A stretch of 63,930 bases of DNA, counting the filler, from Nitrospirae bacterium CG2_30_53_67 (GTDB lineage: Bacteria > CG2-30-53-67): the NCBI GenBank assembly GCA_001873285.1. It is 7 parts of 7 records of this genome, joined end to end, with 100 filler letters (N's around TTAATTAATTAA, not from the genome) between each part and the next. Parts side by side here need not be neighbours in the genome. Positions count along the whole stretch, not along the records: positions 59,476 to 63,930 come from MNYV01000019.1; 6 more parts are not named here. One strand, 5' to 3'. Position 1 is the first letter of the stretch. Each line of letters starts with the position of its first letter. The position numbers were made by a program. Below are positions 60,001 through 63,930 of the stretch, in pieces.

Positions 60001-63000
60001 GAACGGCAAGGCCTTTGCCTACTTGGTCTGGGGTGTCGAGGACGGGACGCACGCCATCGTCGGTACGAGTTTCTCGCTCTCCAAGGCGAAAAAAGGCAAT
60101 GAGCCGCTGGAGACCTGGCTGCTCCGACTGCTCACGCCGAAGATTCACTTTCGCTTCTTCGAGTTGAACCTGGAAGGCCGACCGGTCGTTCTTCTGGAGA
60201 TTGGTCGCGCCTTCCGACATCCGGTGCGCTTCCAGAGTAAAGCCTTCATTCGCGTCGGCCCGGTGAAAAAGCCGCTCAAAGACGCACCCGACCGCGAGCG
60301 GGATTTGTGGCGTATCCTCGACCGGACGCCGTTCGAGGACTTACTCGCTGTCGAACATGTCACAGCCGATGAGGTGTTGCGACTGCTGGACTATCCGGCC
60401 TACTTCGATTTGCTGGAACAGTCGCTGCCTGCCAATCGAGATGGGATACTTGAAGCCCTGAGCAACGACCACCTGATCCGCGCCTGCGAGGTCGGCGGCT
60501 TCAACATCACCAACCTGGGCGCCATCCTGTTCGCCAGGAAGCTTGGCGACTTCCCGCAGCTCAAACGCAAAGCCATGCGGGTCATACAGTATCGCGGCAG
60601 GGGTCGCACCGAGACGTTGAAGGAACAGGAAGACAGCAAAGGCTACGCCAGCGGCTTCGCTGGATTGATCGGCTACATCAACAATTTGCTGCCATCTAAT
60701 GAGGTGATTGAGCAGGCCCTGCGCAAGACGGTACCGATGTTCCCCGAGTTGGCGGTGCGCGAGTTGGAGGCGAACGCCTTAATCCACCAGGACTTCTTCG
60801 TCACCGGCGCCGGGCCGATGGTGGAGATTTTCGAGGACCGCTTGGAGATCACGAATCCAGGCGAACCGCTGGTGGACACCCAACGTTTCGTGGACACGCC
60901 GCCGAAATCTCGAAACGAGGCGCTGGCTTCGATGATGAGGCGGTTCCGTATTTGCGAGGAGCGCGGCAGCGGGATCGACAAAGTCATTTTCCAGGTGGAG
61001 CTGTTCCAGCTACCGGCGCCACTTTTCGAGAAACCGGACGGATTCACGAGGGTGGTTCTGTTCGCCCACAAGCCATTGTCTGCAATGGACAAGGCGGATC
61101 GTGTGCGGGCCTGCTATCTGCACGCATGCCTGTGCTACGTGACTCGCAAGCCCATGACCAACACGTCGGTTCGAGAGCGGTTCGGGATCACCGAGAAGAA
61201 CGCCGCGGTGGCTTCCCGCCTGCTCAATGAGGCTGTGGAGGCAGGGATGATTCTGGTGCGGGATCCCGATGCGGGGACGCGGAATCGGACATATCTGCCG
61301 TTCTGGGCCGCACCAGCCACAGCCAGGGAGGGGATTGCTTGATGGTTCGACTTCTGTTGGCCCTTTCCCGGTACTGCGCTATGTGCAACTTATTGAAAAG
61401 ACTGGTCTTGTGGCTTCCTGCGTTGATTGATGGTTGCTTGATGACGGTAAGGGAGGGCGCTGCAGGGAGGAGGTCTCGATGAAGAGTGACACCAGCGAAC
61501 GCTGCCTCGAACGCCTGATCTGTACGGCGCTGATCGGCGCGCCGTGCGTCCGGAATTCCGGGGACACAATACTTAATTCTATTTAAATCTCAATCATAAG
61601 GAGGAAAAACCATGAGCAAAGGCCAGGACAGCAAGAAGACAACCAAGAAGAAACCAGCCAAAACCAAGAAAGAAAAAAAAGCAGCAAAGAGAGCCAAGAA
61701 GGAACAAAAGAAGGGCTAAGAGTCTTCCATGTAGACCCCTGAGGGCGGTTTTCTAAAGATTTCTCCCTTCGGTCGAAATGACCAAGGGAGAGAATTCCAC
61801 AGAGCTTCAGGGGAATTAGGGACAGCGGGGTTGTTGAAAAAGTGATTTTCTGATCTCATGCCGTCATTCCCGCGTAGGCGGGAATCCAGGTCTTTCATAG
61901 TATTACTGGATGCCCGCTCCCCGCTGAATGCATGCGGGGACAAGTTTATCGGGCATGACAAACTTATTTACCATAAGAGACTTTTTCAAGAGCCCCACAG
62001 CGACCATTTAAAAAGAATTACCCGCAACGGCAGATAAGGGGACTTTTCGAGGGTCCGGGAGAGAGGGTCCGAGGATCACATCTCCAAATATCAATTTTCT
62101 CAGTGACAAATGCAAGGGATAAAAGGGGATGGGATGCGGTTAACCCTACATTCAAGGAAAGATGCCATGCAGAAACTTAAGAGTTCTGTTGAAATCTTTC
62201 GGCGCTATGGAATAGGATGGTTGTGGGTAGCTGCGTTTTTTCTTCTCTGTTTTACTTCCGTTGCGGCGGCAGGCCCGTGCCCTCCGTTCTACCTGAAGAC
62301 GGATGACGGCAAAATCATTAATCCCATGAGCGGCGATAACGCCGATCAGCCATACTCCACACGTCAGACCTGCGGCTCATGCCATCCTTACGAAAAGATC
62401 AGAGAAGGTTATCATTTCGATATGGGGTGGAAGGATGCCAGGGACAATTTTATAAAAGACAAACCTTGGTTTTTAACTCTCGGCATGACCGGCGGCTTCT
62501 GAATGGCTTCTTATCGCCAGTTGGCGAAAAAGAATTTTTCACAACCTGATGAGGTGGAATTTACTCCCTTCACGTTTGCGGCAGAGGGTCCAAAGGATTC
62601 TGAGAACCTTGGCAAACCGGGCTGTGGCGGCTGTCATCCCGGGGGTGGAATGATGGAGCTGGACCGGGATGGACTGCGTTACGACAAGCGACTGATAAAG
62701 TCCCCTGCCTTGGCGGAGTCTTTGGATGGGGACTATTACAAAAGCAAATGGGACAAAACAGGGGTGGTTGAGGTAGATTGTTTCATCTGTCATCTTCCCG
62801 GCTACGACTACAAGAATCGTGTCAAACAGCTCAAGTTCCTGAATTTCAAATGGGCAACGGTTGCGGGATCCGGTATCGGGCAGGTTATGGGGTTTGTCAA
62901 AGATGGTGTAGTACCGAGGGTGGAGTACAACAAACGGTTTTTTAATGAAGACGGCCGGGTCTCTCTGCCGATGCCCCGAAAACCGAGTTACGAAAACTGC

Positions 63001-63930
63001 ATGCTCTGCCATCGTTCCATAGACACTGCAAAACGCGGAACGACCTGGGCCGACCCTGAAAATCCGGATGTGCATCATCTTGCCGGGCTGACCTGTATCA
63101 ATTGTCATCCCGGCGGTCTGGACCATCAGATCGCAAAGGGAGACGAAAATGCCAACCATGTCCGAGACGATCTGGACAACACCATGAGAACCTGCGAGGA
63201 CTGCCACACCCAAGGTTACATGGGGGCAACGGTGATGAAACATCTGACGATCCGGACGGACCATCTTGAATGGATTGCCTGTCAGACGTGCCATATCCCG
63301 AATCTGCACCGCGCCAGGATCGAGAGTATGGTCGTGGTATCCGGCCCGGCAATCAAATTTACCGAGACTCTTGCTGCCGAGATCGGGGCGAGGGTTGACG
63401 CCAAGCCGGCCTATGAGCGCCTTGAGCATCGAACCAGGGAGAAGGACAGAGGCAAGATCTATCCTGTCAATCGGGCCATACCCACTTATTATACCAATCT
63501 GGACGCCGATGGCATACACTATCCGCTTTTCATTTCCGAGGTCACAAAGGCCCTCGACAGCATCAGGCACGAACTGAAAGTAAACGAGAAGTCAAAGATT
63601 ATAGAGATCTATTCTGAGAAAGATATGAAGCTGATGCTTTTATCCCTGTCAGAGACGCTGAAGGGAGACAAGCGTTTTAAACAGGTTAAGCCGTTTTATC
63701 ATAAGGGTTGGAGAGTTCATTATCTGGACGAGAACCGGAACCTGATCTCTCAAAAGGATGAAACCTGGGTCGGCGCATCTCAGTCATACAGCATCAGTCA
63801 TAACGTCGCTCCGGTAACGCAAGCGCTTGGTTATGGCGGATGCGTTGACTGCCATTCAAGCAATTCTCAAATATTCTACGGCAACGTTCTCACAGACGTT
63901 TTCGGGCAGGACGGCAGGCCGGTCTATGCC

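Follow-up and report, generated by a model that had tools for sequence, protein, structure and literature searches.

A candidate selenocysteine-containing OTR-fold octahaem cytochrome c, probably fused to an FdnI-type cytochrome b, in a Nitrospirae genome

Introduction

Two adjacent gene calls at a contig end of Nitrospirae bacterium CG2_30_53_67 share a reading frame and are separated by a single TGA. Does this codon terminate a short monohaem peptide, or does it encode selenocysteine (Sec) within one large multihaem cytochrome, and if so, what would such a protein do? Multihaem cytochrome selenoproteins have been characterised only recently, MccSep being described in 2026 (PMC13510729). A review of prokaryotic selenoproteomes from the same year lists ExtKL and TIGR04315, and its passages on octaheme, cytochrome or multiheme proteins do not mention the family studied here (PMC13188914). 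We propose that the locus encodes a selenoprotein composed of a signal peptide, an OTR-fold octahaem cytochrome c domain and an FdnI-type cytochrome b domain that acts as a quinol:chalcogen reductase, and we assign this overall explanation a probability of about 85%; its functional parts are graded separately below.

Results

A single reading frame passes through an in-frame TGA

We analysed a window of 63,930 nt, the whole stretch of DNA under study, in which positions 59476-63930 represent contig C58 of the genome (4455 nt); C58:3025-3027 thus corresponds to 62500-62502. One frame runs from an ATG at 62167 through the TGA at 62500-62502 (codon 112) to the contig end at 63930, and the open reading frame that starts at 62503 is in phase with it and still open at 63930. 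Translation with read-through yields 588 amino acids up to the contig end, with U112 in the context GGF-U-MASYRQLAKK and eight CxxCH motifs at residues 69, 153, 205, 278, 310, 343, 372 and 559. The frame, the motifs and the length of the product all reproduce the claim of the earlier note that g00554 and g00555 are one gene. The N-terminal signal peptide is predicted from a Kyte-Doolittle peak of 2.04 at residues 16-34 and an AF2 helix at residues 2-32. The features of the locus are as follows.

62154..62159, + strand: Shine-Dalgarno-like AAGGAA, 7 nt before the ATG, a candidate from reading of the sequence
62167..62271, + strand: start codon and predicted N-terminal signal peptide or signal anchor, residues 1-35 (hydrophobic stretch 16-34, then AAA-G)
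62371..62385, + strand: haem c motif 1, C69-G-S-C-H73, kept in 75 of 76 aligned rows
62485..62487, + strand: Met107, five residues upstream of Sec; Met in 40/40 Sec/Cys forms versus 2/36 (6%) other forms
62500..62502, + strand: in-frame TGA, proposed selenocysteine 112; TGA at the aligned codon in 33/79 loci, Cys in 9/79
62508..62534, + strand: SECIS-like hairpin, core UCGCC-AGUU-GGCGA at 62514-62527 and a weaker lower stem pairing 62508-62512 with 62530-62534
62527..62532, + strand: Lys121-Lys122 (AAA AAG); K121 in 69/76 rows, K122 in 75/76, K121 aligned to the haem-2 lysine ligand of the OTR family
62623..62637, + strand: haem c motif 2, C153-G-G-C-H157, in 76/76 rows and aligned to OTR-family motif 2; presumed catalytic haem by analogy with OTR
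62779..63294, + strand: haem c motifs 3-7 (C205, C278, C310, C343, C372), with conserved distal His 303, 320, 359 and 366
63841..63855, + strand: haem c motif 8, C559-V-D-C-H563, from translation and alignment
62503..63930, + strand: rest of the periplasmic OTR-fold domain; frame open at the contig end, linker helix and dihaem cytochrome b proposed beyond

A public protein of 728 residues, P0002, begins at the Met immediately after the TGA and, as noted before, matches 470 of 476 overlapping residues (98.739%). It is strongly supported that 62167-63930 comprises the 5' 70% of one selenoprotein gene, the 3' third of which is absent from the window. The remainder of the gene past residue 588 was not found on any other contig of the genome; among Logan contigs, one in run X5 extends 833 nt beyond 63930. 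Logan contigs from four runs of four studies, one of which may be the source sample, cover 62100-62624 with zero differing letters, TGA and hairpin included, and this agreement argues that the TGA is not a sequencing error.

The TGA column alternates with cysteine and splits gene calls

Among 80 related loci, 79 of which (all from other species) cover the aligned column, we found TGA in 33, Cys in nine, Tyr in 23, Ile in nine, Thr in two, Ser in two and Arg in one; with the locus under study, the TGA forms number 34. The peptide flanks are conserved on both sides of the column. In the best 120 database relatives, 63 proteins begin 1-36 residues after the column and the rest have Ile (20), Thr (12), Cys (11), Tyr (9), Leu (3), Ser (1) or a gap (1), while 27 of 28 small database relatives stop just short of it. 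The pattern of TGA, Cys and split calls described previously was thus recovered, with exact numbers that differ from those of the earlier, smaller samples.

Read-through retains all eight CxxCH motifs in 74 of 76 rows (L036 and L049 lack one each), and eight aligned motifs occur in every row that covers them; only the read-through frame keeps all eight. Untruncated loci give read-through frames of mostly about 760-890 amino acids. In a FastTree phylogeny with midpoint rooting, in which L029, L043 and L045 were flagged as long branches, Sec forms fall on either side of the root, with clades of Cys, Tyr and Ile/Thr forms branching from within them. Tyr, Ile, Thr, Ser, Leu and Arg are also tolerated at the column, so the scaffold does not require this residue, and several functions may exist within the family.

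Family members are frequent among sulfate-reducing and syntrophic Thermodesulfobacteriota and also occur in several other phyla; carriers of the Sec form include cultured Fundidesulfovibrio species. The octahaem part was found in none of 40 relatives, and lateral acquisition of the gene is compatible with this distribution. Around the family loci, we found no conserved gene neighbourhood or partner gene that points to a substrate. In public databases every Sec form is annotated as two pieces, one a "hypothetical protein" and the other either a "formate dehydrogenase subunit gamma" or a "cytochrome b/b6 domain protein"; the formate dehydrogenase name of the truncated calls is a mis-annotation.

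A hairpin downstream of the TGA is invariant at synonymous sites

In bacteria, a SECIS element is a hairpin that closely follows the UGA and carries G-U in its apical loop. At 62514-62527, starting 11 nt past the UGA, UCGCC-AGUU-GGCGA forms a 5-bp stem with an AGUU loop. The hairpin had been reported as identical in the TGA forms then known, and this now extends to 34 of 34. Its 12 nt CGC CAG TTG GCG are present in all 34 TGA forms and in none of the 24 non-TGA forms that encode the same RQLA peptide; the latter vary their codons (CGC/CGA/CGT/CGG, CAG/CAA, five Leu codons, GCC/GCG/GCA). In the TGA forms themselves, synonymous sites adjoining the 12 nt vary freely. All five stem pairs form in 34/34 TGA forms versus 1/46 non-TGA forms, with mean minimum free energies of -10.2 and -5.0 kcal/mol, respectively. 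The fold of 62500-62545 (46 nt) at this locus has -11.9 kcal/mol and a z score of -2.57, which, with 2 of 200 shuffles equally good, is by itself just moderately unusual. In the genome's own FdhA, too, a stem begins 11 nt past the UGA; its loop is GGUCU.

The hairpin overlaps the conserved peptide RQLAKK. At this locus TAT replaces TTT, and the lower stem is weaker than that of most Sec forms.

The genome encodes selenocysteine machinery

All four components named in the earlier note were found again: tRNA-Sec (C169:6871-6964, 73.9 bits, anticodon tca), selA (611.6 bits), selB (296.8 bits) and selD (158.3 bits), the latter two being cut by contig ends. The genome's FdhA contains one TGA. TGA terminates 469 of 1042 long reading frames, the commonest stop of the genome, and is therefore a normal stop there. 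We detected selA in 31 of 33 genomes holding the TGA form and, over cut-off, in 43 of 46 genomes with non-TGA forms; being equally common in both, it does not discriminate. Taken together, the Sec/Cys column, a SECIS-like hairpin that does not vary at synonymous positions, the presence of the Sec machinery and the splitting of gene calls support reading the UGA as selenocysteine 112, and we consider a single gene with Sec read-through very likely.

The periplasmic domain has an OTR fold and a probably distinct Sec position

The AF2 model of the product has a pLDDT of 87.6, as against 88.6 in the earlier note, and a pTM of 0.85. A Foldseek search with it returned 1sp3, Shewanella OTR, as the only match at E ≤ 0.001 (E = 2.1e-8), and structure alignment to 1sp3_A gave a VIA Z of 11.7 and an rmsd of 4.2 over 317 aligned residues (22% identity; model residues 35-573). 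In agreement, hhalign matched the family to TIGR04315 members with 99.84% probability (E = 1.7e-29), so that both fold and profile comparison back the description "OTR-like". All eight haem motifs and five distal histidines align with TIGR04315, the sixth His being one position off. The protein shares with OTR the fold, the eight aligned CxxCH and the aligned distal His; a conserved lysine may correspond to Lys56, which ligates haem 2 in OTR (PMC3769277). It differs from OTR by an extra alpha/beta insertion at about residues 385-540, by Arg290 in place of OTR-family His215 and, in most family members, by the fused C-terminal FdnI-type cytochrome b. OTR is soluble. Only six conserved non-motif histidines are available for the eight haems, in addition to the conserved K121/K122.

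The protein is not itself a TIGR04315 member, as it scores 50.8 bits against a cut-off of 375 and over residues 192-384 only (relatives, 31.9-51.7 bits). Both families, including TIGR04315 members annotated as selenoproteins in GenBank, have Sec and Cys forms with Sec between haem motifs 1 and 2, and among TIGR04315 matches in 301 genomes 21 of 49 carry one TGA. It had been suggested that the two Sec sites might be homologous positions; the families share ancestry, but their best profile alignment puts Sec in different columns (posterior 0.3-0.5). In TIGR04315 the arrangement is GK-x7/8-[U/C], with Sec/Cys following the lysine, 10 residues ahead of haem motif 2. In the protein described here it is U-x8-K, with Sec in an insertion before the lysine, on the opposite side of the aligned haem-2 lysine. 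The Cys/Sec column of TIGR04315 (Cys64) aligns to Ala138, which is unconserved in our family. K121 pairs with the invariant GK lysine in hhalign (posterior 0.3-0.5; the N-terminal segment alone reaches 30% probability), although it lies 32 residues before C153, as compared to 18 residues between the GK motif and haem motif 2 in the OTR family.

An FdnI-type cytochrome b probably completes the protein

The gene's 3' third lies beyond the contig end, so its predicted fusion to a cytochrome b rests on the 98.7% identical metagenome protein P0002. The FdnI-like fusion claimed earlier does occur in P0002 and in relatives; for this gene it falls outside the window and is extrapolated. P0002 matches PF01292 at 42.7 bits (cut-off 30.1) and has five C-terminal hydrophobic segments. 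The same domain was detected in L019, L032 and L055, and a profile search found none in L012 (Cys) or L014 (Ile). The family profile matches FdnI, the gamma subunit of E. coli formate dehydrogenase-N (1kqf chain C), at E = 2.6e-16, and Sec forms exceed the TIGR01583 cut-off (L019, 126.2 bits versus 115.85). In the profile alignment a family-consensus His pairs with a first-helix His of FdnI, which we take to be a haem-ligand position, further ligand positions being presumably kept (FdnI numbering). Unlike FdnI, the domain is not part of a molybdopterin formate dehydrogenase; an additional transmembrane helix precedes it and links it to a cytochrome c domain.

Discussion

On this basis we propose an architecture in which a signal peptide would be followed by a periplasmic OTR-fold octahaem c domain, a single transmembrane linker helix and an FdnI-type dihaem cytochrome b of four helices. 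UGA at codon 112 would be decoded by SelB and tRNA-Sec, recruited by the hairpin lying within the Y-R-Q-L-A-K codons. The alignments place Sec in what appears to be a family-specific insertion between haem motifs 1 and 2, nine residues before a near-invariant lysine that would correspond to the one ligating the catalytic haem 2 in OTR. The cytochrome b domain would exchange electrons with the menaquinone pool, bis-His haems would carry them on to the haem-2 pocket, and Sec112 together with the co-varying Met107 could serve as nucleophile on a sulfur or selenium substrate, e.g. tetrathionate, polysulfide or selenite. Quinone exchange, haem wiring and a Sec112 nucleophile would together make a single-polypeptide quinol:chalcogen reductase, and reduction of a sulfur or selenium compound, coupled to quinol, is the function that we consider most probable. 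We somewhat favour a catalytic over a purely electron-transferring role; the reductive direction with a chalcogen as substrate we put forward tentatively, at a little short of even odds.

One comparable system is MccSep. According to the passages of its description drawn on here, MccSep (GSU2936-type, a polysulfide reductase) is a soluble tetramer with five haems and a His/Cys-ligated haem 2, and its U325 comes from a C-terminal Ig-like domain (PMC13510729). It resembles our protein in several ways: both are multihaem c-type cytochromes with Sec, Cys forms branch from among the Sec forms, a SECIS-like hairpin lies no more than about 30 nt from the UGA, and Sec is proposed to act as nucleophile beside an unusually ligated haem 2 (PMC13510729). 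Our protein departs from it in having eight haems, Sec at residue 112 between haem motifs 1 and 2 and, by extrapolation from P0002, a membrane anchor. The separation from MccSep/ExtKL drawn in the earlier note holds: in addition to the haem number and the N-terminal Sec, a profile search of the protein with NF040886 gave no match at E ≤ 1.

The strongest alternative accepts Sec and assigns the protein a role like that of CbcL, a quinol:periplasmic-cytochrome oxidoreductase without substrate chemistry of its own, in which Sec would tune a redox or structural property. CbcL of Geobacter sulfurreducens, in the parts of its description relevant here, likewise joins a periplasmic multihaem c domain to an FdnI/HydC-kind dihaem b-type membrane domain in one polypeptide; its c domain, however, is a small, largely disordered one of 29 kDa with nine bis-His haems and no Sec (PMC9129911). 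The shared architecture speaks for this alternative, as do the lack of a conserved neighbourhood or partner gene and the retention of all eight haems in whole Ile, Thr and Tyr clades. Nonetheless, the OTR-fold domain of about 63 kDa, with about 565 periplasmic residues for eight haems or roughly 8 kDa per haem, falls into the "peptide replete" class, which has been associated with catalysis (PMC7096707). CbcL has enough conserved His for all-bis-His ligation, whereas the six conserved non-motif His appear too few for this here. In addition, cells incorporate Sec at a cost, known selenoproteins have it at their active sites, and the fold is that of a catalytic enzyme, OTR. We therefore regard a CbcL-like role as unlikely.

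The opposite direction, again with Sec read-through, in which a periplasmic donor would be oxidised and menaquinone reduced through the FdnI-type domain as in formate dehydrogenase-N, with energy conserved in a redox loop, appears rather improbable. The membrane domain is closest to FdnI by both TIGR01583 and 1kqf_C scores, and FdnI reduces menaquinone in formate dehydrogenase-N, yet thiosulfate/tetrathionate-type couples are too positive to reduce menaquinone. CbcL, moreover, is described as oxidising menaquinol with the same type of b domain (PMC9129911). Finally, it is highly improbable that the TGA is a true stop dividing a 111-aa monohaem peptide from an independent 728-aa protein, or that it reflects a pseudogene or a sequencing error: gene callers split the gene in this way throughout the databases and TGA is a stop in Table 11 and the commonest one in the genome, but the downstream piece has seven CxxCH without a signal peptide and so would be unable to reach the periplasm for haem attachment, the same-codon stop recurs in 33 species-level genomes with Cys there in nine, protein conservation extends across it, only TGA forms keep the hairpin unchanged at synonymous positions, and the sequence is the same in four runs.

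Returning to the quinol:chalcogen reductase, we can sketch a broader scenario, which is speculative and doubtful as a whole. Selenium may have been recruited twice in the OTR superfamily, at different positions but both times by the same lysine-ligated catalytic haem. In the family described here Sec would be ancestral, with a SECIS whose nucleotide sequence has stayed fixed in at least five phyla, in a one-polypeptide respiratory reductase (two b haems, eight c haems and Sec) coupling the menaquinone pool to S-S or S-Se cleavage; clades would later have swapped Sec, via Cys, for Tyr or Ile/Thr, changing the chemistry.

As the Sec forms are split and misnamed in public annotation, metabolic reconstructions overlook an enzyme and list a spurious formate dehydrogenase subunit. 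The occurrence of the Sec form in cultured Fundidesulfovibrio species makes the proposal directly testable. If true, the union of a quinone-pool cytochrome b and a haem/selenium active site in one chain would represent a compact new type of respiratory enzyme in sulfur and selenium cycling, and a pair of sister families with Sec at different places around one catalytic haem would offer a natural experiment on what selenium adds to haem-based chalcogen chemistry.

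Gene, contig and reading frame

C58, a short contig of 4455 bases in the 2.37-Mb, 183-contig genome, closes the window (59476-63930) and carries the gene. The gene consists of two ORF parts separated by a TGA:

62167 (ATG) to 62500-62502 (TGA), + strand: ORF part 1, with AAGGAA preceding the ATG
62503 (ATG) to 63930 (contig end), + strand: ORF part 2, in the same frame as part 1

The read-through product has 588 residues, with a hydrophobic N-terminus (16-34), U112 in the context GGF-U-MASYRQLAKK, and eight CxxCH motifs. As noted earlier, a public protein carrying the cytochrome b domain matches it closely: P0002 (728 aa) begins with the Met that follows the TGA and shares 470 of the 476 overlapping residues, and its C-terminal part has five hydrophobic segments as well as a PF01292 cytochrome b. 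The missing 3' end of the gene turned up on none of the genome's other contigs; a contig from one public run extends 833 nt past 63930. Clustered differences near the contig end (63714-63894) were seen in the contigs of all four runs compared, one of which may be the source sample, and agree, at least in part, with the P0002 variant. The assembly break inside the gene may be due to strain heterogeneity.

Upstream on the same contig are an 86-aa fragment (59495-59752), whose match to the MgtC profile is confined to positions 3-46 of 121, and a 498-aa Schlafen AlbA_2 / HATPase_c_4 protein (59846-61339); neither appears related to the cytochrome. The intervening ~800 nt (61343-62166) contain neither a long ORF nor an Rfam match, and no Rfam family was detected on 59476-63930 at E <= 0.1. 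The window joins at least seven contigs end to end; within positions 6548-59475 each joint is a 12-base linker between two 44-N spacers, and neighbourhood across the joints is meaningless. None of the 24 listed sequencing runs was an RNA run.

The in-frame UGA is probably read as selenocysteine

The earlier note had proposed a single gene read through the UGA as selenocysteine (Sec). This reading is strongly supported by five independent lines of evidence that agree: the aligned column, constraint on the RNA hairpin, the Sec machinery, the footprint of gene callers in split calls, and sequence quality.

The comparison drew on species-representative genomes and covered 80 related loci; the column is present in 79. 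The codon was TGA in 33, TGT/TGC in nine, TAY in 23 and ATH in nine, the remainder encoding Thr (2), Ser (2) or Arg (1). The peptide flanking the column is strongly conserved in both directions, its typical form being PWVLSDGMMGKF-U-PPSFRQLAKK, and reading through yields proteins of mostly ~760-890 aa in which the eight haem motifs all align. Gene calls break at the same point: 63 of the 120 best database relatives begin 1-36 residues past the column, and 27 of the 28 small relatives of the N-terminal piece stop exactly before it. The TGA and the hairpin showed no difference in the contigs from the four runs.

The genome encodes tRNA-Sec (anticodon tca), selA, selB and selD, as previously reported, and its FdhA (G000:C109:36322-38328), a canonical selenoprotein, contains one in-frame TGA at C109:36706, followed, also 11 nt after the UGA, by a classical fdhF-like SECIS hairpin with a GGUCU loop. 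A second molybdopterin-enzyme match with one TGA lies at G000:C88:14411-15163. An alternative genetic code with TGA as a sense codon is ruled out, as TGA is the commonest stop of the genome and ends 469 of 1042 long ORFs. Across the family, selA was found in 31/33 genomes with the TGA form vs 43/46 with other forms (L012-L090; Tyr, Ile, Cys and other; 45 at E <= 1e-40). The prerequisite for Sec decoding is thus present, while its similar frequency in both groups makes co-occurrence non-discriminating; the whole octahaem-Sec family therefore lives in Sec-using organisms.

A SECIS-like hairpin is fixed at the nucleotide level in TGA forms

The hairpin UCGCC-AGUU-GGCGA begins 11 nt after the UGA and comprises CGC CAG TTG GCG (codons +5 to +8) with a flanking U and A. 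These 12 nucleotides are identical in 34/34 TGA forms, in which the adjacent Pro, Ser and Lys codons are free to vary. By contrast, they are absent from all 24 non-TGA forms that share the RQLA peptide, and the Arg, Gln, Leu and Ala codons of these forms vary freely. This pattern separates selection on the RNA from selection on the peptide, answering the earlier caution that conservation within RQLAKK is partly coding. The 46-nt fold by itself is no more than modestly unusual (z -2.57), and the weight for the predicted Sec decoding rests on the comparative evidence, not on this fold alone.

The two Cys forms described earlier behaved as stated: the hairpin is lost in L015 and kept in L012 but for a loop G-to-A change (CGC CAA TTG GCG; L012:1632 region, codons +5 to +8). 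L012 is the Cys form closest to the window protein, and its altered hairpin looks like the remnant of a Sec-to-Cys change that happened recently.

Evolution and distribution

In a FastTree phylogeny of 76 read-through proteins with a midpoint root, Sec forms occur to either side of the root, with the clades of Tyr, of Ile/Thr and (twice) of Cys embedded among them; the column changes state eight times vs 38.3 expected from shuffles. Together with the nucleotide-identical SECIS, this nesting suggests that Sec is ancestral in the octahaem-Sec family. Its replacement probably passed through Cys (TGA to TGY to TAY). Carriers of Sec forms are mostly Thermodesulfobacteriota, with others in Spirochaetota, Chloroflexota, Deferribacterota and Delongbacteria. 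Among cultured bacteria, Fundidesulfovibrio agrisoli carries the TGA form (L032), and proteins P0074 and P0094 of F. soli and F. magnetotacticus begin past the column. The absence from related genomes recorded earlier held, the octahaem part being found in 0/40 relatives of the window's own genome; the lateral acquisition then deemed probable is compatible with this.

An OTR-like fold with an FdnI-type membrane domain

The best NCBIfam match of the window protein was TIGR04315, the family of octahaem tetrathionate reductase (OTR), at 50.8 bits, far below the 375-bit cut-off; Pfam returned generic multihaem domains only. With the AlphaFold2 model (pLDDT 87.6, pTM 0.85), Foldseek gave one significant match, Shewanella OTR (1sp3, E 2.1e-8). 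An independent aligner matched 1sp3 to model residues 35-573 with Z 11.7 (rmsd 4.2, 317 residues, 22 % identity), the next best structure reaching Z 3.9. Consistent with this, hhalign of a profile of 76 family members against one of 31 true TIGR04315 proteins gave 99.84 % probability (E 1.7e-29), with eight haem motifs and five distal His in register and the sixth His off by one position. At E <= 1, a family-profile search of PDB sequences recovered only FdnI and short NrfA stretches, not 1sp3, so the OTR likeness, claimed earlier and upheld here, is carried by the fold search and the hhalign run.

The C-terminal domain of the family matched FdnI (1kqf_C) at E 2.6e-16, and in Sec forms exceeds the TIGR01583 cut-off (L019, 126.2 bits vs 115.85). 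Databases call the truncated Sec forms (L019:5911-8466, L032:5932-8409, P0044-P0121) 'formate dehydrogenase subunit gamma' or 'cytochrome b/b6 domain-containing protein'. This naming, caused by a C-terminal domain that passes that cut-off, is a systematic mis-annotation. The nearest full-length relatives of the window protein are the Cys forms L012 and L015 (55-57 %). In both forms scanned, L012 (Cys) and L014 (Ile), PF01292 is absent and a different membrane tail takes its place. Pfam searches of 46 flanking ORFs of 12 loci revealed no conserved gene neighbourhood. Directly downstream of the Cys-form gene of L015 is a tandem paralogue (L015:7912-10479, 856 aa), and a family relative with Ser at the column (L094, second ORF, frame 2) adjoins a true TIGR04315 gene.

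Position of Sec relative to TIGR04315

One TGA occurs in 21 of the 49 TIGR04315 matches over cut-off in 301 Thermodesulfobacteriota genomes. In 14/14 loci read it falls in GK-x7/8-[U/C], a column ten residues ahead of haem motif 2:

L097, L100, L102, L105, L106, L111, L114-L117, L119, L120, L122, L124: TGA 8-9 residues past the haem-2 lysine (Cys64 equivalent)

PMC3769277 gives Lys56 as the haem-2 ligand of OTR and places the motif at C74. The GK lysine of TIGR04315 therefore corresponds to Lys56 and its Sec/Cys column to Cys64. We presume an active-site role for Cys64 of OTR.

The earlier note had allowed that the two Sec positions may be homologous. The best profile alignments, global as well as local, pair K121 with the GK lysine and the Cys64 column with Ala138, leaving U112 in an insertion before the lysine (posterior 0.3-0.5). 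No global, local or alternative hhalign alignment placed U112 in the TIGR04315 Cys/Sec column. Judged from these alignments, the window Sec probably occupies a non-homologous position, though both positions fall in one inter-motif loop region.

For eight haems, the family conserves just six His outside the motifs. K121/K122 are almost invariant, and Met107 occurs in 40/40 Sec/Cys forms vs 6 % of other forms. Such a pattern is consistent with a single haem of special ligation, probably catalytic, with Sec and Met in a putative pocket.

Relation to known selenoproteins and proposed mechanism

Multihaem cytochromes with Sec are already known, namely the pentahaem MccSep/ExtKL and TIGR04315, the latter entered as a 'GenBank annotated' selenoprotein in PMC13188914. 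The octahaem-Sec family is homologous to TIGR04315 but differs in scoring below its threshold, in its apparently different Sec position and in its fused cytochrome b. No database source name of its full-length or N-terminal-piece relatives marks it as a selenoprotein, nor does any paper found on Sec and octahaem or multihaem cytochromes, in main texts, describe it as one.

We propose that the signal peptide would direct export of the c domain, and that the chain would cross back to the cytoplasmic side by the linker helix before the four-helix dihaem b begins. Electrons could then pass between menaquinol and the haem-2/Sec pocket via bis-His haems. In MccSep, reduction of polysulfide and selenite requires the Sec, which lies beside an unusually ligated haem 2 (PMC13510729). 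The analogy with OTR and MccSep suggests that Sec in the octahaem-Sec family may attack an S-S or S-Se bond.
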